59,198 nucleotides of DNA. It comes from an uncultured Candidatus Saccharibacteria bacterium (GTDB lineage Bacteria > Patescibacteriota > Minisyncoccia > Phycocordibacterales > DAORIS01). Position numbers and translations under genes: made by a program. The stretch's first letter is position 1. Each line of letters opens with the position of its first letter. Of this stretch, positions 1,206-35,689 are shown one piece after another. Under the pieces are notes generated by a model, which saw only the letters and a list, made by a program, of their open reading frames with translations, was not told the DNA's origin and did no database searches. The stretch lies in contig CAYTZA010000002.1 in NCBI GenBank assembly GCA_964442365.1, positions 1 to 59,198 of the forward strand. Reading direction: 5' to 3'.

Positions 1206-1301
1206 GTCACAGGTCTCGCTTCACTCGCCCGCGACCCCGACTCACTCGCTTTCGCTCGCTCCGTCTTTCGATTCTCTCTCCCAGAGATCACTTGCAAATA
1301 T

Positions 1302-1328
1302 AAAAGCACCGGACAAGCCGGCACTTTT
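1302..1328 (-). terminator. Rho-independent terminator after tRNA-Glu
   Basis: Minus strand reads GTGCCGG-cttgt-CCGGTGC (two G.U pairs) followed by TTTTATATTT. It begins about 10 nt after the tRNA 3' end. Confidence 0.65.
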
Positions 1329-1330
1329 AT

Positions 1331-1355
1331 ATTTGTGTGACCCTACGGGGAATCG
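1331..1355. repeat. 25-bp direct repeat, proximal copy (part of the intact tRNA-Glu)
   Basis: Identical to 1181-1205, 150 bp away. Confidence 0.85.
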
Positions 1356-1409
1356 AACCCCGCTTTGAGCCTTGAGAAGGCTCCGTCCTAGCCGATAGAC
1401 GATAGGGCC
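1338..1409 (-). tRNA. tRNA-Glu (anticodon CUC)
   Basis: Reverse complement is GGCCCTATCGTCTATCGGCTAGGACGGAGCCTTCTCAAGGCTCAAAGCGGGGTTCGATTCCCCGTAGGGTCA. It has a 7-bp acceptor stem, anticodon stem GAGCC/GGCTC with loop TTCTCAA, and T-arm CGGGG-TTCGATT-CCCCG. No CCA is encoded. Confidence 0.9.
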
Positions 1410-1424
1410 ATGTGTATTACTTCA

Positions 1425-1455
1425 TTGATAGATTTATACCTTTTTTTGCTATAAT
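1425..1455 (+). promoter_or_regulatory. Sigma-70-type promoter for the DoxX gene
   Basis: TTGATA (1425-1430), 19-nt spacer, extended -10 TGcTATAAT (1447-1455), about 40 nt upstream of ATG 1494. Confidence 0.5.
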
Positions 1456-1493
1456 TGGGAAGTATAGTACAGATTTAATATTAATATTAATTT

Positions 1494-1925
1494 ATGATAA
1501 ATAATATAATTTGCGGTTGGAAACATAAAGCACTAGGACTATTGCTTGTGCGTTTAGCTTTGGGAGGCGCTTTTCTTTACCATGGCTATGGCAAGCTTAT
1601 GGATATGGAAGGAACTATTAGTTTCTTTTCTAGTCTAGGTTTCAATTCATTTTTGGCTTATGTAGTGGCAATCGTAGAAACTGTTGGTGGTATAGCTATA
1701 ATCTTAGGCGTTGGAACAGGTCTTGCTGGAATCCTACTTGCTATTGTTATGGTTGTAGCAATTTTGAAAGTAAAGTTGCCAAATGGAGGAATAACTAAAG
1801 CTGAAATTGATCTTGTTCTATTAGCATTGTCACTCGGTATTATATTTACTGGCCCAGGCAAGTATTCTTTGCACGATAAATTCTGTAAGAATTGTAATTG
1901 TCTACCAGAAACTCCAAAGGTTTAG
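1494..1925 (+). CDS. DoxX-family membrane protein
   Basis: 143 aa with 4 predicted TM segments. N-terminal LLLVRLALGGAFLYHGYGKL is typical of DoxX. Confidence 0.8.
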   Translation: MINNIICGWKHKALGLLLVRLALGGAFLYHGYGKLMDMEGTISFFSSLGFNSFLAYVVAIVETVGGIAIILGVGTGLAGILLAIVMVVAILKVKLPNGGITKAEIDLVLLALSLGIIFTGPGKYSLHDKFCKNCNCLPETPKV

Positions 1926-1940
1926 TTTTTCTTTAAAAAG

Positions 1941-1975
1941 AAAATAAAAAAAGCGTCTCGCGAGAGGCGCTTTTT
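1941..1975. terminator. Bidirectional Rho-independent terminator
   Basis: gcgtctc-gcga-gaggcgc (1953-1970) flanked by an A-run (1941-1952) and a T-run (1971-1975). It lies between convergent genes. Confidence 0.8.
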
Positions 1976-1995
1976 GCTTGTGAGGGTGTGCTTTT

Positions 1996-2295
1996 TTATC
2001 TGCAAACTCGCATAAACATTTCAGAGAAGAGAAGCCCTTGTACTTCTCTGGGCGTTCCCTGGTGTATTTTCCCTTGGACTTGGTTTCTTTTCTTTACGAT
2101 CCTAGCACGTCTACTGAGCTCTTTTAGTACGAGCCTGTAGATACCATTATCACTGTCGTGGTCTATGGGTATGTTGTGAGCGTTTAGTACTCGCTGTACA
2201 GCTGAACGGGGATCTTTCTCGTGATTGATCCTTCGCGATCGACTCGCTTCATCTGCCAAAATTCGGATCTTGCTGTCGAGATTGTTCGGAAGCAT
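1996..2295 (-). CDS. Hypothetical protein (99 aa), GC-rich, second gene of an overlapping pair
   Basis: ATG 2295 (MLPNNLDSK...) is preceded by AAAGGAG 6 nt upstream. No family recognised. Confidence 0.6.
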   Translation of the reverse strand: MLPNNLDSKIRILADEASRSRRINHEKDPRSAVQRVLNAHNIPIDHDSDNGIYRLVLKELSRRARIVKKRNQVQGKIHQGTPREVQGLLFSEMFMRVCR

Positions 2296-2476
2296 GACCA
2301 CTCCTTTCTGCCATGAGTTTTGTGAGATGTTCGTACTCCGCGTCATTTTCGGGATCGTACGGAGTTTCTTCGTTTGTTCCAGGAACCGTCACTTCGTGCT
2401 CCACAAAAGGGACAAGAATATGGATATCTTGTCCGTCAAACACTCGCCGACGCCTTCTTTTCCCAAATCGTGGCAT
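2249..2476 (-). CDS. Hypothetical protein (75 aa), GC-rich, first gene of an overlapping pair
   Basis: ATG 2476 (MPRFGKRRRRRVF...) has AAAGGA upstream. It has a basic N-terminus and an acidic middle, and overlaps the downstream gene by 47 nt in another frame. Confidence 0.55.
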   Translation of the reverse strand: MPRFGKRRRRRVFDGQDIHILVPFVEHEVTVPGTNEETPYDPENDAEYEHLTKLMAERSGHASEQSRQQDPNFGR

Positions 2477-2599
2477 ACAGAGTCCTTTCCGTAAGGTTAG
2501 ATACAATGATCAAAAGAAAGTAGTACGCCTACCTTCATCTGTATATAATTATACAACCCTAAACAGTAAACGTCAAACAATTTAAAAACAGGCTGTGGA

Positions 2600-3052
2600 T
2601 TACTCAAATAAGCTATCAATCACAGCTTTTACATCCTCACCACGAGCTTTTCCCTTGAGTTCTTTCATGATAGTACCCATAAAAACACCAGCTTTACTTT
2701 TGTCAGTAATACCGAGCTCTTCTTTACGAGTAGATACGATTTTTTGTATATCTTCACGACTCATCATTTCAGGAAGAAAGGTTACAAGTACTGCAAGTTC
2801 TGCTTTTTCACTTTCTGCAAGATCTTCACGATTTCCTTTAGTAAATTGTTCTATAGAATCTTTTCTTTGTTTAACAGCACGTTCGATTACTTTTATACAA
2901 TCTTCATCAGATAGTTCTTCTTGTGGTGGGCGTTTCTGCGCAACTAATTCGTTTGTAAAACCTGCTAAAAGGCCACGTAATACTAAAAGACGCGTAGCTT
3001 CTTTTTTGAGCATAGCGTCTTTGATTTGATTTTTGATGTCTGTTTGGATCAT
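2600..3052 (-). CDS. GatB/YqeY-domain protein
   Basis: MIQTDIKNQIKDAMLKKEATRLLVLRGLL... and C-terminal KAGVFMGTIMKELKGKARGEDVKAVI are typical of YqeY. Confidence 0.85.
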   Translation of the reverse strand: MIQTDIKNQIKDAMLKKEATRLLVLRGLLAGFTNELVAQKRPPQEELSDEDCIKVIERAVKQRKDSIEQFTKGNREDLAESEKAELAVLVTFLPEMMSREDIQKIVSTRKEELGITDKSKAGVFMGTIMKELKGKARGEDVKAVIDSLFE

Positions 3053-3092
3053 AGGTGTATATGATAGCAGAATAGGGGATATTTGTATAAAT

Positions 3093-3120
3093 AAAAAAAC
3101 CACCGAGTGTTAGTCGGTGG
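3093..3120 (-). terminator. Rho-independent terminator for CDS 3148..3804
   Basis: ccaccga (3100-3106) / tcggtgg (3114-3120) stem. The minus strand then reads TTTTTTT (A-run 3093-3099). Confidence 0.8.
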
Positions 3121-3147
3121 GCGGTAGCGGAAGGTGTTTGTGGTGGA

Positions 3148-3804
3148 TCAGAGTTCAACTTCCACTTTATTTTGGGGATTCAGAATTATGTCCCGAATGT
3201 TTTCGTCTAAGCTGTTGTTGCGGTTATGTGTAACGACATACCTGCCTCCTTTGTATTCTAAGACAGAACCAATAGGATATTTCGAAGCATCTCTCTCGAA
3301 CAAAGATATGTTCATGTTTTTAGAGCATTCGTCTGTGATGGCCAAATGTAGTCCAAATTCCAGTACTCCCCCGTTCATAGAATCTCTTTCAATTCTGCTT
3401 ATGACAGAGAGGGGAATTTTTTCTCCAAAAGTAGGACTTGTGGACCAAAAGAGAGGAAATAATCCCTGTAGCCCTATCATGTGTACAAAAGAAAACTCAT
3501 TGCTGGGGTCATTCTCTGTGCTTAACCAGGCGTTTACATTTTTCATCGCCATGCGGTGTTCAGGGTCTGACTTTGGTTGCTGAAGTGCTTTACATATGTT
3601 CAACCAATGCGGAACAAGGAGTTCTTTCCTGTTGTTTCTAACAATCATCTCTGCGATCTGTTGGATAAGTGGGTTGTCAGGATTCGCCAGTTGGCGAACC
3701 ATCTCTTCAGAACCACCTAGTGCCTCCACCCGCCTAACCAGGTTAGTGATGATCGACATAACAAGTCCCAAAATGGACACAATAGAGGACGTAGACTTGG
3801 CCAT
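3148..3804 (-). CDS. Hypothetical protein (218 aa), moderately GC-rich
   Basis: ORF runs to 3837, but ATG 3804 has AGGAG 8 nt upstream while ATG 3837 has no SD. No family recognised. Confidence 0.65.
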   Translation of the reverse strand: MAKSTSSIVSILGLVMSIITNLVRRVEALGGSEEMVRQLANPDNPLIQQIAEMIVRNNRKELLVPHWLNICKALQQPKSDPEHRMAMKNVNAWLSTENDPSNEFSFVHMIGLQGLFPLFWSTSPTFGEKIPLSVISRIERDSMNGGVLEFGLHLAITDECSKNMNISLFERDASKYPIGSVLEYKGGRYVVTHNRNNSLDENIRDIILNPQNKVEVEL

Positions 3805-3978
3805 TGTAAGGTCTCCTGATTTGGGCTCATCTCTCATTTCAGTAACACGCTGAAACCCCAGACGAGCCAGTCAAAGAACTATTTACAGTAGAGCACGTTT
3901 TAATCAAGTAGTCAATTTTGATCTGTGTATATAAAATTTCAATATGAAATTAGGCTCTATATAAGATATACTATATAC

Positions 3979-5031
3979 ATGCAGACGATAATCATAGTTA
4001 TATTGATGGTTTTATGTATTGCTGTCGTGACAGCAGTTTTTGTTATTTACAATATGTCGAGAAAGCTAGCGAAACCAGATAAATCAGATGCTTTTTCTCT
4101 ACTGATGCAACAAATGAACGAACTTAGAAATACTGTAGACGACAAACTAGGTAAAAATTCAGAGATTATAAACACCTCACTTTCAAGACAGTTTGGAGAG
4201 TCACAAAGATTGATTAGAGATATTACAAGAGAGATCACAGAGGTTAAAGAAACAGGTAAACAAGTAGCCGGTGTGGCAGATCAACTCAAGTCCCTTCAAG
4301 ATATTCTTAAAAATCCAAAACAACGTGGAGTACTTGGAGAGTATTATCTCGAAACACTTTTACAGAATACTTTGCCGGGAGGATACGAAATGCAATATAA
4401 GTTTAAAGATGGAGAAATAGTCGATGCTGTAGTTAAGGTTAAAGATAAACTAATCCCTGTAGATTCTAAGTTTTCTCTTGAAAACTACAATCGTTTTATA
4501 GAAGAAAAACATGAAGATACAAAAGAAAAACTATATAAAACGTTTTTGAGTGATCTCAAGATGCGCATACAAGAAACAGCAAAGTATATTAGACCGGCAG
4601 AGGGGACGCTTGATTTTGCTTTTATGTTTGTACCACATGAAGCAATTTATTATGATCTTTTGGTCAATAAGATCGGCACGCTTGATGAAGAAGATCAAAA
4701 TCTCATACAGAGAGCTGCAAGTAAATATCGTGTAATTATCGTATCGCCAACTTCTTTCTTGGCGTATCTGCAGACTGTACTTCAGGGTCTCAAAGCTTTG
4801 CAGATAGAAGAATCAGCAAGACTTATAGCTACAAAAGTAGAAGATTTAGCTAAACATCTTAAAGTTTTTGAAGAGTACCATGGTAAACTTGGAGGATCAC
4901 TTTCTACAGCAATTAATCATTATAATTCATCTACAAAAGAGTTTAAAAAGATAGATAAAGACGTATTGAAGATTACTGGTGATGCTCTTAATATAGAAGT
5001 AGTTACACTTGATAAGCCTGATATAGAATAA
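3979..5031 (+). CDS. rmuC: DNA recombination protein RmuC
   Basis: N-terminal TM segment, a coiled coil, and GVLGEYYLETLL...IPVDSKFSLENY, then a C-terminal nuclease-like region typical of RmuC. ATG 3979 was chosen over the upstream alternative start. Confidence 0.85.
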   Translation: MQTIIIVILMVLCIAVVTAVFVIYNMSRKLAKPDKSDAFSLLMQQMNELRNTVDDKLGKNSEIINTSLSRQFGESQRLIRDITREITEVKETGKQVAGVADQLKSLQDILKNPKQRGVLGEYYLETLLQNTLPGGYEMQYKFKDGEIVDAVVKVKDKLIPVDSKFSLENYNRFIEEKHEDTKEKLYKTFLSDLKMRIQETAKYIRPAEGTLDFAFMFVPHEAIYYDLLVNKIGTLDEEDQNLIQRAASKYRVIIVSPTSFLAYLQTVLQGLKALQIEESARLIATKVEDLAKHLKVFEEYHGKLGGSLSTAINHYNSSTKEFKKIDKDVLKITGDALNIEVVTLDKPDIE

Positions 5032-25790: not shown

Positions 25791-27188
25791 CTATTTCTTT
25801 GGTTTGAGAGTGATACCAAGTTCGAGAAGTTGCTCGGGTGTAATCTCTGCGGGTGAGTCCATCATAAGATCCTTTCCTTCTCCTGTTTTTGGAAATGCTA
25901 TAACTTCACGAATATTTGGTTCGTTCTCTAAAATCATCATTAGTCTATCAAATCCCCAAGCTATACCGCCGTGTGGAGGAGTTCCTGATCGAAAAGCCTT
26001 CAACATATGTCCGAAGTTCTCCTCGATTCTCTCCGATGCATATCCCATGATTTCAAATACTTTAGTAAGGGCTTCTGGTTGATGATTACGAATACTTCCC
26101 CCACCGATTTCATAGCCATTGAGCGCCACGTCATATTGTGTGGTAAGGATCTCACCAATCTGTTCTTTATTCATAAGCCAAGGAAGATGTTCTGGTTTTG
26201 GAGCTGAAAAAGGATTATGTGTAAATGTCCAGCCACCTGTTTCTGTCTTCTCAAAGAAAGGAAAGTCTATAACCCAACAGAAAGCTAAAAGATTGGGATC
26301 TTCTTTGTTAGTACGTAGATCTGGCTTGTCGTTTCCATATTTTTCCATAGCCTCTTTGTATGAAAGTCGAGGAAATGGAATTTCTTGTATTGTTTTATGT
26401 GGATAGAGAGTTTTTACTATATTGATTAAAAGTTCTTCGTTTAAACGCATAACATCTTCGCGCACAACGAAACTCATCTCAAGATCTAGCTGTGTAAATT
26501 CTGGTTGACGGTCTCCACGAGTATCTTCGTCTCGAAGGCACTTGGCAAATTGATAATATCTTTCAAAACCTGCAGTCATGAGGAGTTGTTTGTATTGTTG
26601 TGGAGATTGTGGAAGAGCATAAAACTTTCCCTTCTCTAATCGTGATGGTACAACGTAGTCTCTTGAACCTTCTGGAGTTGACCGCGTAAGGAGCGGTGTT
26701 TCTATTTCAGTAAATTTCTGTTCAGTGAGTTGATTGCGGATAAGTTGTTGTACTTTGTGACGATTACGAATAGTTTTCTGTAATCGTGTACGACGTAAGT
26801 CTATGTATTTATATCGAAGACGTACTTCTTCATTGACCTCTTTTCCATCGGTTTGTATATCAAAAGGTGGAGTTTCTGTTTCGTTTAGTACCTTTATCGA
26901 CAAAATTTCAAGCTCTATAGATCCGTTTGTTTTATCAGCCTGTACGTTTTTATCAGGTCGTTTGTTGACTTTACCTTGTACTTCTACGATCCATTCTGGA
27001 CGAACTTTAGTACCTACTTCATGAGCTTCTTTTGCTCCAGGTAAGATCACACCCTGTACAGTTCCTGTCATGTCTCTGAAATCAAAAAAGATTAGCTTTC
27101 CTTGATCTCTACGTACGTCCACCCAGCCTTTGATGGTAACTTCTGTACCAATTTTATCTGCAAGCTCCCCTATATATATTCGTTCCAT
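25791..27188 (-). CDS. aspS: Aspartyl-tRNA synthetase, bacterial type but lacking the GAD insertion domain
   Basis: FYALPQSPQQYKQ, QPEFTQLDLEMSF, and GGSIRNH...GFDRL. GNDKPDLR is followed almost directly by WVIDFPFFE. Confidence 0.93.
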   Translation of the reverse strand: MERIYIGELADKIGTEVTIKGWVDVRRDQGKLIFFDFRDMTGTVQGVILPGAKEAHEVGTKVRPEWIVEVQGKVNKRPDKNVQADKTNGSIELEILSIKVLNETETPPFDIQTDGKEVNEEVRLRYKYIDLRRTRLQKTIRNRHKVQQLIRNQLTEQKFTEIETPLLTRSTPEGSRDYVVPSRLEKGKFYALPQSPQQYKQLLMTAGFERYYQFAKCLRDEDTRGDRQPEFTQLDLEMSFVVREDVMRLNEELLINIVKTLYPHKTIQEIPFPRLSYKEAMEKYGNDKPDLRTNKEDPNLLAFCWVIDFPFFEKTETGGWTFTHNPFSAPKPEHLPWLMNKEQIGEILTTQYDVALNGYEIGGGSIRNHQPEALTKVFEIMGYASERIEENFGHMLKAFRSGTPPHGGIAWGFDRLMMILENEPNIREVIAFPKTGEGKDLMMDSPAEITPEQLLELGITLKPKK

Positions 27189-27243
27189 AATTCTTACTAT
27201 ACTAGCAGACAATCTATCGTTTTTCCACATTCAAAATTTTAAT

Positions 27244-27275: not shown

Positions 27276-27342
27276 GGACTGATTGGCAAGTAGGCGCGAG
27301 CCACGACCCAGTCTAGAAAATAACGGGCTCGTCCCGTTTTTT
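27276..27342 (+). ncRNA. Candidate about 65-nt sRNA convergent with, and 9 nt from, the DUF3800 gene
   Basis: Consensus promoter, then helix UGGACUG/CAGUCUA enclosing GGC-GCGA-GCC (GNRA loop), then terminator ACGGG-CUCGU-CCCGU plus U6 (27323-42). Confidence 0.6.
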
Positions 27343-27350
27343 CGTGCTTA

Positions 27351-28088
27351 TTAAGGAAGTTTGTAGAATGTTTTATTTTGATCTACTGTAATAATTTTAT
27401 TTTTTAGTATGTTGCATATTTCGTATTCATAGGAATTAGCTACACTCATCTGGTCGCCCTCTTTTTGTAGGCATTGTTGTGTAGCAGGCCATGCAAAGAT
27501 ATCTGCCAGTTGTGTTTCGATGTCGTGGTTATTTTTACTAACAAAACTAATTGCGGTTAACATTTTTCTTATTTTTTGTGATGTTAAAGTATTGCATCCA
27601 TGCGATAAATAGTAGATATATCTACGATAGAACTCAATATCTTTACCACCGTTTGATTCCATTATAATTTGCCCTTTCTGATTTTTAATTGTTGTAAGAA
27701 ATGACAAAAATGTTTTTATTATTGTATCAAAAGCAGCAGCTTGTATTTTTTCAGTACCCCACCCTGTTTTTATCGCCTTGTTTTTATCAATAGAAATAAT
27801 GATAATTTTGAAGTGTCCTTGTTCAAGAAATGTGAACAAATCTCTATGAAATTCTTTTTCGATGTTTTGACTGTTGAGTATTGTGAAATCACCTTTTCTT
27901 TTACCTATTTCGGCTGAATGAAATACAATATCTGTACGATTCCAGTATTTAAATTTTATCTGATCCGCCTTAATTTTTAATTGATCTGCTTCGTGTGGTT
28001 TTACGATAATCCCACACAGAGTATAGTTTTTACTATGGTGTTTTAAATCCGCAACCCCACTTTCATCGATGTATAGTTTGTAAGTCAC
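27351..28088 (-). CDS. DUF3800-family protein
   Basis: N-terminal YKLYIDESG and C-terminal ETQLADIFAWPA match DUF3800 hallmarks. GTG start without an obvious SD. Confidence 0.75.
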   Translation of the reverse strand: MTYKLYIDESGVADLKHHSKNYTLCGIIVKPHEADQLKIKADQIKFKYWNRTDIVFHSAEIGKRKGDFTILNSQNIEKEFHRDLFTFLEQGHFKIIIISIDKNKAIKTGWGTEKIQAAAFDTIIKTFLSFLTTIKNQKGQIIMESNGGKDIEFYRRYIYYLSHGCNTLTSQKIRKMLTAISFVSKNNHDIETQLADIFAWPATQQCLQKEGDQMSVANSYEYEICNILKNKIITVDQNKTFYKLP

Positions 28089-28155: not shown

Positions 28156-29700
28156 CTACTCCTTTGGGCTTTCTTGAGAGAAACTTTTTTGTTCGAGATC
28201 TGTTGGTAATTCGATATAGAATTGTGAACCCTTTCCTTTTCCTTCTGACTCTACCCAGACACGTCCATGATGAGCTTCTACCATTTGGCGGACGATATAG
28301 AGACCGAGGCCTGTACCAGTAGCGTTGACTGCATGTGCATCGTCTGCTCGACTGAAACGCTGGAATAGTTTTGCTTTTGTGGCTTCGTCTACTCCAACAC
28401 CAGTATCGACGATTGATATGAGAACCTTATTGTCCGTTTTATGCTCAATACTAACGACTATAGAGCCTTTAGGGGTGTATTTTATAGCATTGTCCACTAG
28501 ATTACCTACCACTTGTTTAATCTTACCAGCGTCAACTGACACAGAGCACAGATCATCTGGATTTTTAGGTGCAAAAGTAAGAGTGAGTTCTTTTCCGATA
28601 AGGTTTGGTTGTAATTCAGCAACAAGTTGTTTGATTGTTGGTGTAAGGTCAATCGGTGCAAAATCGTATTTCATTTTGCCAAGTTCTATACGAGATATAT
28701 CAAGATAATCTCCGACTACGCCTACTAGATTGTGTGCTGATTTGTACATAATCTGTGCAGCCTCTTTTACTTTATCTGGTATTTCTCCGTATTCACCCTC
28801 GAGTATGAGCGAGGCATAACCTTTGATGGCTGTAAGTGGTGCGCGGATTTGATGTGTGGCAAAGGATACGAATTTAGTTTTATCATCGTTTGATTTTTCA
28901 AGAAATTTCGCGTATCTTCTCCATGCATAGATAAGTACAATAGTAAGAATCGATATGATAGATGTCAGGAATACGATAAATATTATAAAGGGTCTTAGGG
29001 TTTGAGTAGTTATTGTAAAAAAATCGTCAGCTTTAATGTCTGTCGCAAGTATTGCAACCACGTTGTCGTTCTCGTCTTTTATTGGGGCATAGCCTGTAAT
29101 AACGGTTCCGTATTCATCTGTATATAGATCTTTACTAGTTAAAGGGCCATTGTAAGCTTCAAAGGCTTCAGGAATATCTACAGCTTCGGGATATGGTTGT
29201 CCAGGCCACTGAAGCTTGTCTGGTCCATCTGGTTCTATCTTCCCATCACGATTCACGTCAACATATCGAGACGGATCTCCACTTGTGTTTGCATTGGGAT
29301 CAATAGAGTCAGCATCTGCAACAAATTCCATTTGAGTTGGGTCATCTTTTGTTTTTCGAAAGATGTACATAAAAACAATGTCGTCATTACTATACTTTGC
29401 CTTATGGAGTCTATTAACAACCATTGCCCATTCTGGTTTTTGCCAGTCTTCTTCGGTTTGAAGTGCAGAAAGGTTTGAAGGACTTATGTTTGCAGCTGCT
29501 GTAATAGAAATAGTTAAAATCCTTTCTCGAAGATTATCTGTAAGAAGATTAACTGTTCTTTGATAAAGTATTTGAGAAGAAAATATGATGATAGTAATTG
29601 AAATAAGTAAAATTACAATACCAATCCAAATAGGACCTTTTATTTTTATAAGTATTTTTTTAATAGGTTTTATCATATAAAGTATTTTTATATTATACAT
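28156..29700 (-). CDS. Sensor histidine kinase (TM - Cache-like extracytoplasmic domain - TM - HisKA - HATPase), no cognate response regulator nearby
   Basis: H-box FATHQIRAPLTAIKGY, N-box DNAIKYTPKG, DTGVGV, GTGLGLYI. ATG 29700 overlaps the upstream stop by 8 nt (alternative ATG 29676). Confidence 0.9.
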   Translation of the reverse strand: MYNIKILYMIKPIKKILIKIKGPIWIGIVILLISITIIIFSSQILYQRTVNLLTDNLRERILTISITAAANISPSNLSALQTEEDWQKPEWAMVVNRLHKAKYSNDDIVFMYIFRKTKDDPTQMEFVADADSIDPNANTSGDPSRYVDVNRDGKIEPDGPDKLQWPGQPYPEAVDIPEAFEAYNGPLTSKDLYTDEYGTVITGYAPIKDENDNVVAILATDIKADDFFTITTQTLRPFIIFIVFLTSIISILTIVLIYAWRRYAKFLEKSNDDKTKFVSFATHQIRAPLTAIKGYASLILEGEYGEIPDKVKEAAQIMYKSAHNLVGVVGDYLDISRIELGKMKYDFAPIDLTPTIKQLVAELQPNLIGKELTLTFAPKNPDDLCSVSVDAGKIKQVVGNLVDNAIKYTPKGSIVVSIEHKTDNKVLISIVDTGVGVDEATKAKLFQRFSRADDAHAVNATGTGLGLYIVRQMVEAHHGRVWVESEGKGKGSQFYIELPTDLEQKSFSQESPKE

Positions 29701-31540
29701 CTAAAAGATTATCTAGAGTACCCTCTGGTATTTCCCAAAGAAACGTTGCAAGTCTTGGTCCTGAGTCTTTTCCAAATAGAAGTTGATAGATTTGTTTAAA
29801 AAAGTGTAGTTGTTTTGTGCTATTTTCTGTTTCTGTTGCCCCAGATATTTTTGGTATGGCGTAGAGTAAAGAAAAAAAGTCGTCAGAAGACATTGTAGAT
29901 TTACGACCCAATAATTCCTTGAGAGAGTGAATAAGTTGTATATCTTTAGTTTTTAGTGTTGTGATAAACTCTGCATTCGGTTCATTCAAAAGATAATACG
30001 TATTACGCTCGTCAACTTTTGCATATCGTAAACCCTCCGTTGTTTTTATTGAACTTAAATCAAAATAAGCTTGAGCATTTGTTTTGGTGAAGGGGTCTTG
30101 TTTGTTGATCTTGGGTGAGCGAAGCCTTAAGAGTTTTTCTACATTTTTATTTTCAATTTCAGTAAAATCTTTAACAGATATTTTTGTATCAGTTTTAGAT
30201 GTTTTTTGTTGAAGTAGTGGTTTTGCAACATGCTCAAAAATATCACGTTGTGGCAAGGTTGGTTTGGCAATAATTTTACCATCTATACTGATACTGGATG
30301 CTCCATGACCGTATCCTCCGTATGGTTGTACACCCCTTTCTATACCTTGGGCGTGTAGATGAGTATTGTGAATAAAAGTATCTGTATGGTGAAGTATTTT
30401 ACCATCAATAGTTTTCCCAATAAGTTTTTTTATGTAAGCACTTTCACCGTAAAGAGTAATATACATAGCATTTTGAGCATATTCTTTATTTTCAAAATAT
30501 AGATTCAAATCGGTATCCTTTTTGTATGATTGAATAAATAAAATAGGAGCAAATGATTCTTCATAGTTTCCTCCTTTATCTAAAGGTTTACATATAACAG
30601 TTGGTTCGACTATGGCTTCGGCCGTACGAACAATACCACCCGTGTTCTTATCAAGCCATTCACGATTATCAACAATAATAGTTTCAATGTATTTTAAATC
30701 GTCAGGATCACTAATGGGTCCTATTTTACAAGAACGATCGCTGTATGGTCCTACTCTAATCTTTGAAAGATTTTCATGAAGAAGTGTCATAAATTGTTCG
30801 TAAATATCACACTGAACAAGAATGGAGTTTGGTGCAGCACAGTCCTGACCTTGATTGTAAAGTGATAATTTAAGAACGGCTTCTACGGCTTTGGATATAT
30901 TGGCTTCTTTGCTTACTACCACAGGATTATGACCAGATCCGTTTGAAATAAATAACGTTCTTTTGTCAAAAACTAGTCTTAATTGATCTGCGTGTACAGA
31001 TGTGCCAGTAAAAATCACCGCCTCTGTTGCGGGCTTACTTTCACCCGTTTTTGGATTTATAAGAAGAGCCGAGCGCTCTCTTAAAAAGTCTATACGTTCT
31101 TTGGTAGAAACAGTAATATTTGGAAATAAGGTAAAAATATTTAAAAGTTTTAGTACCTCAGGAAAAAAAACTCTCATTCCTCGTGGAATACGAAAATGTA
31201 CTTCACTTGCCATAAGTGAAGGTACAATAACGAAACAAGAAAAAGCATATAGTGGTTGATTCCTAGGTAAGAAAGCAGCAACTGCACCTATGCGTAGTTG
31301 AAAATATTCCTCGTTTTCTTTTAAATTTCTCAGTAGATCGAGCGTACGCTCTATTTCATCCGTGGCTACTTCGTAACTTTCATATGATAATAATATATTA
31401 ATCAAATCTTCTTTATTAGATTCAATAGTATCTGCTAATTGTGTGGCTTGTTTATCAATAACATTGAAATCAAGTGACGTATACGGAGCGCAGTTTGTGA
31501 TGGGCTTATGAATTGACTTAAATATGTCTGTAATTTTCAT
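29693..31540 (-). CDS. Aldehyde-dehydrogenase-superfamily enzyme fused to a class I LysRS-like C-terminal domain
   Basis: ALDH motifs: PRNQPLY, IFTGTSVHA, LYNQGQDCAAPN (catalytic Cys), EESFAPIL, QPYGGYGHGASS. The C-terminus LHFFKQIYQLLFGKDSGPRLATFLWEI resembles the class I lysyl-tRNA synthetase C-terminal signature. ATG 31540 (alternative TTG 31558). Confidence 0.7.
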   Translation of the reverse strand: MKITDIFKSIHKPITNCAPYTSLDFNVIDKQATQLADTIESNKEDLINILLSYESYEVATDEIERTLDLLRNLKENEEYFQLRIGAVAAFLPRNQPLYAFSCFVIVPSLMASEVHFRIPRGMRVFFPEVLKLLNIFTLFPNITVSTKERIDFLRERSALLINPKTGESKPATEAVIFTGTSVHADQLRLVFDKRTLFISNGSGHNPVVVSKEANISKAVEAVLKLSLYNQGQDCAAPNSILVQCDIYEQFMTLLHENLSKIRVGPYSDRSCKIGPISDPDDLKYIETIIVDNREWLDKNTGGIVRTAEAIVEPTVICKPLDKGGNYEESFAPILFIQSYKKDTDLNLYFENKEYAQNAMYITLYGESAYIKKLIGKTIDGKILHHTDTFIHNTHLHAQGIERGVQPYGGYGHGASSISIDGKIIAKPTLPQRDIFEHVAKPLLQQKTSKTDTKISVKDFTEIENKNVEKLLRLRSPKINKQDPFTKTNAQAYFDLSSIKTTEGLRYAKVDERNTYYLLNEPNAEFITTLKTKDIQLIHSLKELLGRKSTMSSDDFFSLLYAIPKISGATETENSTKQLHFFKQIYQLLFGKDSGPRLATFLWEIPEGTLDNLLDV

Positions 31541-31560
31541 TGATAGATATTCCCCCAAGC

Positions 31561-31899
31561 TTATTTATGAAAATGCATCAAAACAATTCCTGTAATTGCT
31601 AAAGCCATTCCAGAATACTGATATACAGAGACAGTACTCCATTCACGGAATACAAAAAGCCCTATTAATATTGTGCTTATTGTTAATAATGAGTCAATTG
31701 TTGCTGAACTTCCAGCCAAACCTATTTTTGATGCCACTAAACCAAAAGTAATAAAAACAATTGGAGAAATAATTAATAAAATTAATAACCAGATTGTAAA
31801 CTTGCTTTCTTTACCCGCCCAAATTGCACTAACAGAATTTGCTGCAACAGCAACAGCAACGGAGATAATAATATAAAACCACATATCAAATTTACTCAT
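31561..31899 (-). CDS. Small 4-TM membrane protein (SMR/EamA-half, ArnE/F-like)
   Basis: 112 aa, four hydrophobic segments, ATG 31899. The stop lies immediately upstream of the ALDH-fusion gene. Confidence 0.65.
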   Translation of the reverse strand: MSKFDMWFYIIISVAVAVAANSVSAIWAGKESKFTIWLLILLIISPIVFITFGLVASKIGLAGSSATIDSLLTISTILIGLFVFREWSTVSVYQYSGMALAITGIVLMHFHK

Positions 31900-32564: not shown

Positions 32565-33065
32565 TTATTTTACTTTAGAATAAAATACAACTTTCATCTC
32601 CATAGCTCGTGTCATAATTCTATCCCCTATTTCACCCCAATCAAAATACTTCTTGTATTCTTTTGGATCAATCAATACGATTTCCATGATTTCACCATCA
32701 GGATCTTCAACAAAATCACCATAGGGTTCAACGATACAAAAACTTCGTATCTGTCTAACAGTTCTCTCTGGCTCGTAGGCATCTTGAAAACCAATAAGTT
32801 CTTGGTGCAAGACTTTCATATTTGTTTCTTCTTTTACTTCCCTAACGATAGCTTCTTCATACGTTTCTCCGGCTTCTATACCTCCTCCAGCTGGTATCCA
32901 ACCAGATTTTGGGTGTTTAACTAATACAAGTTTGTCACCATAAAAACAAAAAGCGTGTACACCCTGTAATACTTTATCGTCCATATCTACATGTGGGTCA
33001 CCTTCTGAGTATATAAAATCAATGGTTCGTCCTAATCGATCTGTGTGTTGAGTTTTAAGTTGCAT
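32565..33065 (-). CDS. NUDIX hydrolase
   Basis: Nudix box GGGIEAGETYEEAIVREVKEETN. ATG 33065. Confidence 0.88.
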   Translation of the reverse strand: MQLKTQHTDRLGRTIDFIYSEGDPHVDMDDKVLQGVHAFCFYGDKLVLVKHPKSGWIPAGGGIEAGETYEEAIVREVKEETNMKVLHQELIGFQDAYEPERTVRQIRSFCIVEPYGDFVEDPDGEIMEIVLIDPKEYKKYFDWGEIGDRIMTRAMEMKVVFYSKVK

Positions 33066-33088
33066 ATTTCTTATGGTAATATTATTCT

Positions 33089-33487
33089 GTGGAAAATCAA
33101 TCAAATCAAGATCTTAGCGTAAATACTTTGCTAGAGGGTCAAATAACTCAAGCGACAAACCAAACACCAAAACCAGTTTTGCAAAAATTTAAATTAACAA
33201 TTTTAATTTTTAGTATTTGTAGTTATTTTTTATTACCATACCTGTTTATTTTCTTTTTTTTCATGCTAGCATTTAATGATACTGGACAAAGTATTATTTC
33301 GGTGTTTTTTGTATTTATAAAAATAATTGCAATATATCTTTTCCCGTTTATTTTGATGCTCATTGTACCTGCATTGTTTATTGATCTAAAAATGAGAGAG
33401 TCTGGTCTTATAAAGAAAATAGCTGTATTTATCGCTTTAGGATTTATTACTCTTTATGTTGTTTTTAAAATACTAGGTATTGAGTAA
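33089..33487 (+). CDS. Hypothetical membrane protein (3-4 TM)
   Basis: GTG start with a hydrophobic C-terminal two-thirds. No family recognised. Confidence 0.5.
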   Translation: MENQSNQDLSVNTLLEGQITQATNQTPKPVLQKFKLTILIFSICSYFLLPYLFIFFFFMLAFNDTGQSIISVFFVFIKIIAIYLFPFILMLIVPALFIDLKMRESGLIKKIAVFIALGFITLYVVFKILGIE

Positions 33488-34051: not shown

Positions 34052-35689
34052 CTATTTCTTTCTAAAAAGCTTGTTTATGAATTTTGTGCCGGATGAGAGT
34101 TTTTTACTTTTTTCTGGAGTGGCGACAGGAGTCTTTTTATTGGAAACATCTTCGTTTTTCATAAGTGGAAAGAGTACAACATCACGAAGATTCTTCTGAC
34201 CAGTAAAGAGAGTTACAAGGCGTTCTATACCCATACCAAAGCCCGTAACCGGTGGCATACCGTGTTCCATGGCTGTGAGATACTCTTCATTGACCTCCAT
34301 AGCTTCAACATCACCCTCTTTCTTTGCTTTAGCCTGATCCTCAAAAGCTTTACGTTGTTTGATTGGGTCTACAAGCTCAGAATATCCCTTCACGATTTCC
34401 CAACCAGATACGAGAAGTTGATAGCTCTCAGCAATACGTGGATCTTCGTCTAGAGTGCGAGCAAGTGGTACAAGATCTGCTGGATAGTGTGTGACAAATA
34501 TTGGTTCTACAAGTGTAGGTCGTATAGTCTTTTTATATATCTCGTCTAGAATATTGGCACGACTACGTTTTTCTAGTTCCTCAACTCGGAGGCCAAATTC
34601 TTTCGCTTGCGCGAGCAAAGTCTTCTTATCTGCAAACATATCGACACCTTTAGTTTTTAGAAGTTCAGCAAAGGTAACTCTCTTAAATGGTTTTGATATA
34701 TCAATATCATGGGCTTTGTCTTCTTTGTCATAAACAGTAAATACAGTTTTGCCTGTGGCTTTAGTCAAAACGTCGCGAAGCATTTCCTCTGTCCACTTCA
34801 TACCTGTTTCGAAGTTTTCATAGGCGCAGTACCATTCGAGCATTTGAAATTCTTGAAGATGACTTGGATCAATACCTTCGTTACGAAAGTTGATTGCAAA
34901 TTCAAAGACACGTTCAAAACCTCCGGCTATAGCCATTTTGAGATCAAGTTCTGGAGCAATACGAAGTGTAAAAGAAGTGTCTAAAGCTCGATGGTGAGTC
35001 TTAAATGTTTCTGCCATAGCACCACCAGCTTGGGGTTGGAGTGTACGTGTTTGTATTTCAAGGAAATCTTTTTTTAAAAGATACTCTCTAAGACCTTGAA
35101 CAATCTTTGAGCGAGTCACGAAACGTTCAAATGTTTCTTTATTTGCGACAAGATCAAGATATCTTTGACGGTAGCGAATCTCTACATCTGAAAGACCGTG
35201 AAATTTGTCTGGTAAAGGTCGTAGTGTTTTACTAAGAAAACTAAAATCAGCACAAAGAAGTGCTAACTTGCCCTGTTTGGTTATAAAGGGTTCACCAGAT
35301 ACACCAATAAAGTCTCCGAGATTTACGAGGGTGATAATCTGAGCAAATTTTTCTGTTCCAAGAACATCTTGTTTGAAACAAATTTGTAATTCTCCTGAAG
35401 CATCTTGAATATTGGCAAAAGCAATCTTACCGTGTTCACGAAAAGCCATAATACGTCCGGCTACAGAGATATTTTTAGTGGCTCCGGCAAAAACCTCGTC
35501 AGCAGAGCGTGGAGTATTTTTTTCTACAAAATCTATCACCTCGCGAGTACTCCGATTACGTTCAAAACGTCCAGCATATGGTTTCCAGCCAGCTTTTTGT
35601 ATATCATTAACCATACCAATACGAACTAATCTTTCATGATGGTCACTCTGCACTTCTGCAGGTTTTTGTGTATTTTCTGTCTTTGCCAT
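34052..35689 (-). CDS. lysS: Lysyl-tRNA synthetase, class II, with a basic C-terminal tail
   Basis: OB-fold N-domain plus class II motifs (FRNEGID..., GMGIERL). About 35 extra Lys-rich residues at the C-terminus. Confidence 0.95.
   Translation of the reverse strand: MAKTENTQKPAEVQSDHHERLVRIGMVNDIQKAGWKPYAGRFERNRSTREVIDFVEKNTPRSADEVFAGATKNISVAGRIMAFREHGKIAFANIQDASGELQICFKQDVLGTEKFAQIITLVNLGDFIGVSGEPFITKQGKLALLCADFSFLSKTLRPLPDKFHGLSDVEIRYRQRYLDLVANKETFERFVTRSKIVQGLREYLLKKDFLEIQTRTLQPQAGGAMAETFKTHHRALDTSFTLRIAPELDLKMAIAGGFERVFEFAINFRNEGIDPSHLQEFQMLEWYCAYENFETGMKWTEEMLRDVLTKATGKTVFTVYDKEDKAHDIDISKPFKRVTFAELLKTKGVDMFADKKTLLAQAKEFGLRVEELEKRSRANILDEIYKKTIRPTLVEPIFVTHYPADLVPLARTLDEDPRIAESYQLLVSGWEIVKGYSELVDPIKQRKAFEDQAKAKKEGDVEAMEVNEEYLTAMEHGMPPVTGFGMGIERLVTLFTGQKNLRDVVLFPLMKNEDVSNKKTPVATPEKSKKLSSGTKFINKLFRKK

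Follow-up and report, generated by a model that had tools for sequence, protein, structure and literature searches.

We describe a recurrent association between an aldehyde dehydrogenase (ALDH) fold and lysyl-tRNA synthetase (LysRS), detected in the course of the analysis of a 59,198-nucleotide (nt) stretch of DNA (hereinafter the window, that is, the whole stretch at its full length) from an uncultured Candidatus Saccharibacteria bacterium (contig CAYTZA010000002.1, assembly GCA_964442365.1). The window encodes a protein, here denoted the ALDH-LysC fusion, in which an ALDH module is followed by a domain homologous to the C-terminal part of class I LysRS. In relatives of this protein, ALDH modules are joined to complete LysRS of both classes. 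This linkage is the main new result of the present work, and it points to an uncharacterized enzyme acting on lysine-charged tRNA. A preliminary description of the window, made from the sequence alone, had suggested that the protein could reduce or transfer the aminoacyl ester of Lys-tRNA and that a small membrane protein encoded next to it could export the product; the comparative data make this scheme considerably more plausible.

Fusions of ALDH modules with lysyl-tRNA synthetases of both classes

To identify fusions, we scanned species-representative genomes and then mapped the domains of the proteins; a search of 1.8 billion cluster representatives yielded 319 clusters at E<=1e-30. At least three independent ALDH/LysRS arrangements are observed. 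Among Proteobacteria and actinomycetes, class I LysRS precedes the ALDH, either within one protein of ~960-990 amino acids (aa) or as adjacent genes (PF01921 match at 5e-71); the hosts are Photorhabdus, Xenorhabdus, Pseudomonas (cichorii, farris, tremae, and GM80), Brenneria, Saccharothrix, Kibdelosporangium, Crossiella, and others. The reverse order, with an N-terminal ALDH and a full-length C-terminal class I LysRS (980-1120 aa), is found in some members of the Candidate Phyla Radiation (CPR; loci L041, L042, L043, and L050), and in locus L047 the two parts are encoded by split genes. The LysRS part of the L041 protein reaches 387 bits with TIGR00467 (cut-off 147.55) and retains HIGH-like and KMSKS-like motifs. 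In the third arrangement, represented by P0192, the ALDH is joined to a complete class II LysRS (NF001756, 2.9e-61; PF01336 and PF00152).

Apart from the complete fusions, there are forms in which the synthetase is reduced to different extents. The L042 fusion (1286..4273) reads HFGC at the HIGH-like motif and ...ERHAHELL... in the KMSKS region, so that its catalytic core looks like one in decay that has lost KMSKS. LysRS remnants of intermediate length are present in P0133 (694 aa) and P0128 (629 aa). On the class II side, P0202 and P0214 combine an ALDH with the OB anticodon domain, beyond which the rest of the sequence is degenerate. The class I helical domain and the class II OB domain have unrelated folds, and each is the anticodon-side domain of its respective LysRS. 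This series places the window protein at its trimmed end, with the ALDH and the anticodon-side domain retained and the catalytic core of the synthetase gone. Judging from these sequence relationships, the window protein is a descendant of ALDH-LysRS fusions, and the loss of domains is a process that ran in parallel for two unrelated LysRS folds. The series, from full fusion through a degenerate core to the anticodon domain alone, amounts to a clean natural experiment in domain loss. It also corrects one statement of the preliminary description, namely that the C-terminal part is not a decayed lysK: given the sister full-length ALDH-LysRS-I proteins (387 bits in the case cited above) and the intermediate and degenerate forms exemplified by P0133 and L042, the most suitable interpretation is that the tail is what remains of the synthetase in an ancestral ALDH-LysRS-I fusion.

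The ALDH-LysC fusion itself has more than 120 full-length homologs with 53-67% identity, all from Patescibacteria/CPR assemblies, which are named in databases either 'aldehyde dehydrogenase family protein' or 'lysyl-tRNA synthetase class I'; no model dedicated to the fusion is present in NCBIfam. The ALDH module is 40-42% identical to the ALDH halves of the LysRS-I-ALDH proteins of Photorhabdus, Pseudomonas, and Saccharothrix. Many members of the clade are stand-alone ALDHs of ~400 aa or are fused to enzymes unrelated to tRNA, and the plasmid collection that we searched contains no LysRS-ALDH fusion, just separate LysRS-I genes and distant ALDH-clade members.

The wider ALDH clade shows further fusions (P0185, P0200, P0206, P0224, P0247, P0189, P0150, P0157, P0148, and P0167). 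The partners include a Pol-beta-type nucleotidyltransferase, a PLP aminotransferase, GNAT, and an AAA_33 P-loop kinase-like domain, as well as a PLD domain, an SDR/epimerase domain, and ankyrin repeats.

The ALDH module and its active site

The gene of the ALDH-LysC fusion occupies positions 29693..31540 on the minus strand (615 aa from the ATG at 31540); if translation started at the TTG at 31558 instead, the protein would be six residues longer, at 621 aa (open reading frame (ORF) 29693..31558). The catalytic module of the ALDH fold corresponds to residues 20-440 (30221..31483, minus strand) and matches the Pfam model PF00171 (Aldedh) at 1.4e-25 (90.3 bits, cut-off 23); a sequence search of the PDB returns ~237 ALDH chains. 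An AlphaFold2 (AF2) model of the whole protein built on 118 homologs (pLDDT 93.5, pTM 0.92) retrieves ALDH structures in Foldseek at E ~1e-20 and TM-score ~0.65 on the target, with generic ALDHs alone among the matches and no subfamily favored. The superfamily motifs that had originally been read by eye are real: FLPRNQPLY, FTGT, YNQGQDC, E328, and YGG are nearly invariant in the 118 homologs, and C234, N94, and E328 are strictly so.

The active site was further assessed in 125 diverse members of the ALDH clade. The oxyanion residue Asn94 and Gly179 are present in all 125; Cys234 (YNQGQDC; codon 30839..30841, minus strand), which aligns with the ALDH catalytic cysteine, is conserved in 124/125, and the NAD(P)-ribose residue Glu328 in 122/125. 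Position 200 (codon 30941..30943, minus strand), which aligns with the general-base glutamate of the ELGGKSP motif and lies in the string SNGSGHNP of the window protein, is Asn in 110 of the 125 and Asp or Glu in none. The preliminary description had pointed to exactly this combination of a missing general base and a retained cysteine. Hydrolytic ALDHs are defined by the joint presence of Cys, Glu, and Asn, and other deacylation routes yield acyl-phosphates or acyl-CoA (PMC13598318). The window protein lacks the conserved glutamate that marks the hydrolytic, acid-forming enzymes. Under this definition, the active-site pattern describes an ALDH fold in which the nicotinamide site and the thioester chemistry are intact and there is no water-activating base.

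With respect to subfamily, the best sequence neighbors of the protein are oxidizing ALDHs, with aminoaldehyde and piperideine-6-carboxylate dehydrogenases among them. No LuxC match was obtained for the window protein at E<=1 in Pfam, and no significant match to LuxC or ProA models; several relatives show weak LuxC (PF05893) matches, from 5e-6 to 9e-3, always far below Aldedh. Accordingly, a reductase-like function would be ascribed to the window protein by analogy with LuxC and ProA, not by membership in these families.

Many sister ALDHs (L041, L043, L045, L047, and L048 and P0129, P0130, P0135, P0138, and P0140 among them) carry an extra soluble N-terminal domain of ~90-140 aa that the window protein lacks. 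Its recurring pattern is a hydrophobic strand, a helix, a 'VPR/IPR' strand, and an 'L..L.G' helix. The possibility that this extension (~100 aa) is a fused copy of the neighboring membrane protein with four transmembrane (4-TM) segments was rejected, given that the extension is soluble and unmatched by the 4-TM profile. A distant stand-alone member of the clade (L085, Streptomyces sp. Mg1 plasmid pSMg1-3, 49389..50657) is encoded in a biosynthetic cluster together with two ATP-grasp enzymes, a NikS-like protein, an adenylate-forming enzyme, a KS-like protein, a thiamine pyrophosphate enzyme, and an MFS transporter.

The C-terminal module derived from class I LysRS

The preliminary description recognized a class I LysRS module in the C-terminal part of the protein from a sequence signature, and this assignment stands. 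A single tail sequence retrieves class I LysRS (1irx) as the top PDB match at just E=0.026, and a profile of 37 family tails aligns with residues 443-517 of 523 of the same structure at 3.3e-9. In a direct profile alignment with CPR class I LysRS (hhalign), residues 456-615 (29696..30175, minus strand) correspond to the last 150 residues of the synthetase with a probability of 99.7% and E ~1e-26. The family models agree, with TIGR00467 matching 36 and NF001968 all of the 37 family members; on the tail, TIGR00467 covers model positions 428-502 of 515 only, for 28 bits against its cut-off of 147.55. In Foldseek, a separate model of the C-terminal part has 1irx_A as its sole meaningful match. By these comparisons, residues 456-615 are homologous to the C-terminal helical domain of class I LysRS, of the anticodon-binding type, including the GPRL signature. 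The signature segment, FFKQIYQLLFGKDSGPRLATF (29741..29803, minus strand), is common to archaeal, CPR, and proteobacterial class I LysRS. Of the two Pfam models that the preliminary description had proposed for checking, PF00171 was matched, whereas PF01921 was unmatched both by the whole protein and by the tail alone. In the full fusions that were scanned, however, PF01921 covers the catalytic core only, so that its silence says nothing against a homologous origin of the tail.

Class I LysRS (LysK; TIGR00467; PDB 1irx) and residues 456-615 of the window protein thus share the helical C-terminal domain with its FxxxYxLLxGxxxGPRLxxF signature. The catalytic Rossmann domain with HIGH and KMSKS, which is present in the full-length relatives, and the stem-contact region are missing in the window protein, and no aminoacylation is possible. 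Within the family, mean pairwise identity is 60% in the signature segment, 63% in the ALDH core, and 31% in the linker-like segment 456-520; the signature being as conserved as the ALDH core, the tail is under selection. Bacterial glutamyl-tRNA synthetase (GluRS) has anticodon-binding subdomains that are related to the C-terminal helical ones of class I LysRS (PMC12088422), and U35 and U36 are identity determinants for both classes of LysRS (PMC9976931). Given the homology of the tail, and given that fusions derived from class II LysRS keep the equivalent OB domain, we infer that the tail would bind tRNA(Lys) and recognize U35 and U36 of its anticodon.

The operon and its conservation

The fusion gene is the second of three genes arranged head to tail on the minus strand. 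It is preceded by a gene for a 112-aa membrane protein with 4 predicted TM segments, a putative exporter (31561..31899), and followed by a gene for a 514-aa sensor histidine kinase (28156..29700). The genes are as tightly coupled as originally described: 2-20 nt separate the stop codon of the 4-TM gene from the start of the fusion, depending on the start codon, and the ATG of the kinase at 29700 overlaps the fusion stop codon (29693-29695). A scan for terminators found none between any of the three genes; terminator-like sites number 7 against 2.3 expected by chance, somewhat above chance, and promoter-like sites occur at chance frequency only.

Conservation of this neighborhood, another expectation of the preliminary description, was assessed in 52 CPR loci, including the window, and in 29 non-CPR loci. 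A 4-TM ortholog is encoded directly upstream, on the same strand, in 32/52 CPR loci, and a kinase ortholog directly downstream in 41/52. Both genes go with particular forms of the ALDH protein. The 4-TM neighbor accompanies the trimmed form and is absent at full-fusion loci, and the kinase is found only beside trimmed or LysRS-less forms, in none of the 7 full or split LysRS-I loci (L041-43, L047, L048, L050, and L051).

The 4-TM protein of the window shows weak matches to EamA (0.043) and EbrB (0.033). Among its orthologs, 7/19 match TMEM234 (best 2.6e-4) and 7/19 match EamA (best 2.4e-3), both models of the DMT clan, with all scores below the gathering thresholds, and the family has no match in the PDB. 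The kinase contains HisKA (5.6e-13) and HATPase_c (6.4e-29) domains in Pfam searches, along with two TM segments and an extracytoplasmic domain of ~190 aa. It is an orphan locally, as had been noted, no receiver-domain gene being present in any frame of the 59-kb window; in six relatives (L017, L033, L036, L037, L038, and L046), a single-domain CheY-like gene is located directly beside the operon. The association with the kinase is not confined to proteins with the LysRS-derived tail. The LysRS-less clade ALDH P0138 (554 aa; L087/L088, 4001..7167) is followed by a kinase that is 42.6% identical to that of the window over 460 residues, sensor domain included, which indicates that the link between ALDH and kinase is older than, or independent of, the LysC tail.

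Outside the CPR, the proteobacterial and actinomycete loci have no kinase neighbor; in 20/29 of these loci, an MFS gene is directly downstream of the fusion in otherwise unrelated housekeeping surroundings. The Photorhabdus luminescens group (L065, L068-L070, L073, L074, and L077) has no MFS gene directly after the fusion; the next gene on the same strand, ~200 nt downstream, encodes a 303-aa protein, identified as RdgC in L074, where a 5'-nucleotidase-like gene is found upstream of the fusion.

A possible lysyl-tRNA reductase and the alternatives

The function that we tentatively favor, at a probability that we would place a little short of even, is the reduction of Lys-tRNA(Lys) with NAD(P)H, followed by export of the product. 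In this scheme, the LysRS tail would dock tRNA(Lys) through its anticodon arm, with the charged tRNA being made by the fused synthetase in the full-length forms and by the class II LysRS in the organism at hand. Cys234 would attack the aminoacyl ester to give a lysyl-thioester enzyme, and NAD(P)H would reduce the thioester to L-lysine 1-aldehyde (lysinal), or to a cyclized or dimerized derivative thereof, in a reversal of the ALDH reaction as in ProA, LuxC, and CoA-acylating ALDHs. The co-transcribed 4-TM protein would export the cationic product, and the co-transcribed kinase would have a functional link with the system, as a sensor of the product or as a regulator of the pathway.

Several lines of comparative evidence support this proposal. 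The first is the active-site pattern described above, in which the cysteine, the oxyanion Asn, and the cofactor-site residues persist across the clade and the general base is never acidic; the weak LuxC matches of several relatives are in line with it. The ALDH is joined to LysRS-I in both gene orders and also to class II LysRS, and the trimmed forms keep only the anticodon-binding domain, with the LysRS signature of the tail under selection. Transporter genes of different families (MFS and small DMT-like 4-TM) adjoin the gene in unrelated lineages. Moreover, the other fusion partners in the wider clade activate carboxyl groups or use aldehydes (P-loop kinase-like, Pol-beta nucleotidyltransferase, PLP aminotransferase, and SDR). 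As with GluRS, amino acid activation by class I LysRS requires tRNA, which fits the retention of tRNA-recognition domains in every type of fusion.

A number of observations weigh against the reductase proposal. The last 95 residues are not basic, with a net charge of -2 in the window protein and a family mean of +3, and the tRNA-contact role of the retained domain is inferred from the homology with the GluRS domain and the statements cited above. A search for tRNA genes in the window and at 27 related loci revealed none dedicated to the system beside the fusion gene. The 3' end of a tRNA would need to fit into the substrate tunnel of the ALDH, and lysinal would have no obvious use for a CPR cell with a reduced genome. 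Furthermore, P0138 keeps the kinase without the tail, so that the tail is not indispensable for the link between ALDH and kinase.

Some of the same observations would fit an ordinary small-molecule ALDH or acyl-reductase, acting on an acyl-CoA, acyl-phosphate, or aminoaldehyde, with a vestigial tail that would serve folding, oligomerization, or protein docking, not tRNA binding. Many clade members are, after all, free-standing or fused to non-tRNA enzymes, the P0138-type sisters have the same kinase neighbor in the absence of a LysRS part, and the distant member in the Streptomyces cluster has no aminoacyl-tRNA synthetase (aaRS) gene within 9 kb on either side; the lack of net positive charge in the window tail and the poor conservation of the mid segment 456-520 point in the same direction. 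This explanation nevertheless appears unlikely. It is specifically LysRS, of either class and in either gene order, with which the ALDH has been fused repeatedly; what the trimmed forms retain is the anticodon-side domain alone, in two unrelated folds; and the LysRS signature is no less conserved than the catalytic core.

A non-redox aminoacyl transferase or cyclase would share the LysRS/tRNA link with the reductase model. Cys234 would take lysine from Lys-tRNA as a thioester, and the acceptor of the lysyl group would then be an amine, a lipid, a sugar, or the epsilon-amine of the lysine itself, which would give a lysine lactam; no hydride would be transferred. The absence of the hydrolytic base would favor such acyl transfer, engineered amide-forming ALDHs (PHBDD entries) are among the structural neighbors, and the small DMT-like protein could be a flippase instead of an exporter. 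Yet the residues of the NAD(P) site, namely Gly179 and Glu328 (see the counts above) along with the FTG motif, are almost invariant, a conservation that would be difficult to understand in an enzyme with no nicotinamide cofactor, unless the acceptor occupies the site, and we accordingly assign this possibility a low probability.

Lower still, we rate the idea that the protein is a regulatory partner of the kinase that binds tRNA(Lys), lysine, or NAD(P)H and signals translational or redox status with little or no turnover. The overlap of the fusion stop and kinase start codons, the presence of the kinase in most CPR loci but only next to trimmed and LysRS-less forms, and the single-domain receiver genes beside the operon in six relatives would all be expected under such a function; the conservation of the catalytic residues would not, the large extracytoplasmic sensor domain of the kinase suggests an external signal, and the proteobacterial and actinomycete relatives have a transporter and no kinase. 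Finally, operation in the oxidative direction, with lysinal or alpha-aminoadipate semialdehyde being oxidized and the acid either released or loaded directly onto tRNA, thereby coupling lysine metabolism to charging, seems highly improbable: although the best sequence neighbors are oxidizing ALDHs of the aminoaldehyde and piperideine-6-carboxylate types and thioester and aminoacyl-ester chemistry is reversible in principle, there is no general-base Glu for hydrolysis, a complete ATP-using LysRS partner makes little sense if the ALDH made acyl-tRNA, and we know of no source of lysinal.

A more elaborate and quite speculative scenario, to which we give only a small chance, is that the three genes form a tRNA-dependent signaling circuit, in which lysinal would be made from Lys-tRNA(Lys), cyclized or dimerized (for example, to bis(aminobutyl)pyrazine), exported by the 4-TM protein, and sensed by the extracytoplasmic domain of the kinase. 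Such a circuit would include the first aminoacyl-tRNA reductase of the ALDH fold, the second known after glutamyl-tRNA reductase (GluTR), and the LysRS-ALDH and MFS pairs of Photorhabdus, Xenorhabdus, Pseudomonas, and actinomycetes would be expected to yield the same class of lysine-derived metabolite.

Comparison with known systems

In GluTR (HemA), a cysteine attacks the aminoacyl-tRNA ester and NADPH reduces the resulting thioester to an amino-acid 1-aldehyde; the enzyme works together with the cognate class I synthetase and is, to our knowledge, the only known aminoacyl-tRNA reductase. The chemistry proposed here for the window protein, in which tRNA-reductase activity is itself only a proposal, would be alike. 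In contrast, the folds are unrelated and there is no sequence relation, the window protein matching only ALDHs; furthermore, GluTR uses glutamate, whereas the window protein would use lysine and would recognize the tRNA through a borrowed synthetase domain.

ProA, LuxC, and the CoA-acylating ALDHs resemble the window protein in the ALDH fold, the cysteine thioester, the absence of the hydrolytic Glu, and the activated acyl group, and differ from it in that the reductase family models are not significantly matched by the latter. ProA frequently occurs in fusion with its activating kinase (P5CS), a parallel to the fusion of the ALDH clade with LysRS; we know of no ALDH for which an aaRS is the activating partner. 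The joining of a synthetase to a consumer of Lys-tRNA(Lys) outside translation has a precedent in the fusion of LysRS with MprF (PMC2922099). In LysX (NF002821) and MprF, the consumer is a lipid aminoacyl transferase of the GNAT fold combined with class II LysRS, as opposed to an ALDH fold in the present case, and only the anticodon-side LysRS domain is left in the window protein. The carboxylic-acid reductases and the terminal reductases of nonribosomal peptide synthetases (NRPS) likewise resemble the proposal in that carboxyl activation is followed by NAD(P)H reduction to an amino-aldehyde, often with a dedicated exporter, but they employ adenylation and carrier domains and an SDR-type reductase, with neither tRNA nor an ALDH fold. 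The reactive amino-aldehydes produced by these enzymes dimerize to pyrazine signals.

Within this landscape, the window protein would be an ALDH-type acyl reductase equipped with an aaRS-derived tRNA handle. Full-text literature searches returned nothing on a lysyl-tRNA or aminoacyl-tRNA reductase, on LysRS-ALDH fusions, or on their CPR context, and no characterized example of the ALDH-LysRS architecture was found, in agreement with the preliminary description.

If the proposed function is correct, it would constitute a new route for an amino acid out of translation, in which a reductase of the ALDH fold finds aminoacyl-tRNA via the anticodon-binding domain of a synthetase. GluTR would no longer be a one-off, and a tRNA-dependent route to reactive amino-aldehydes would be added to those already known. 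Conserved genes without an assigned function are a long-standing gap in the understanding of Patescibacteria, and a function would be provided for a protein that is conserved across many of these bacteria at the identity levels given above. The same explanation would cover the two-gene cassette of LysRS-ALDH and MFS that is found in actinomycetes and in Proteobacteria associated with insects and plants.

Other features of the window

The gene at 34052..35689 (minus strand), which the preliminary description had assigned to class II LysRS, indeed encodes this enzyme (TIGR00499, 475.7 bits against a cut-off of 427.6), and it is the likely source of Lys-tRNA(Lys) in trans. Candidates for class II LysRS near other CPR loci were discarded, the matches being weak only and located at the positions of AspRS-type genes. 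The sole tRNA gene in the window is that of tRNA-Glu(CTC), at 1337..1409 on the minus strand.

Downstream of the operon, on the same strand, a DUF3800 protein (PF12686, 9.6e-11; 27351..28088) is encoded between the kinase and aspartyl-tRNA synthetase (AspRS; 25791..27230), and a hairpin with a T-run is found at 27322..27338, after the DUF3800 gene. The AspRS is just 479 aa long, compared with the 590 and 586 positions spanned by the bacterial-type models, and is matched in two separate stretches, the best of which ends near model position 295; compared with its usual bacterial counterpart, this enzyme may be missing an internal segment. On the other side of the operon, a 179-aa ORF (32565..33104, minus strand) contains a putative Nudix-box-like string, GGGIEAGETYEEAIVREVKEETN, which was spotted by eye.

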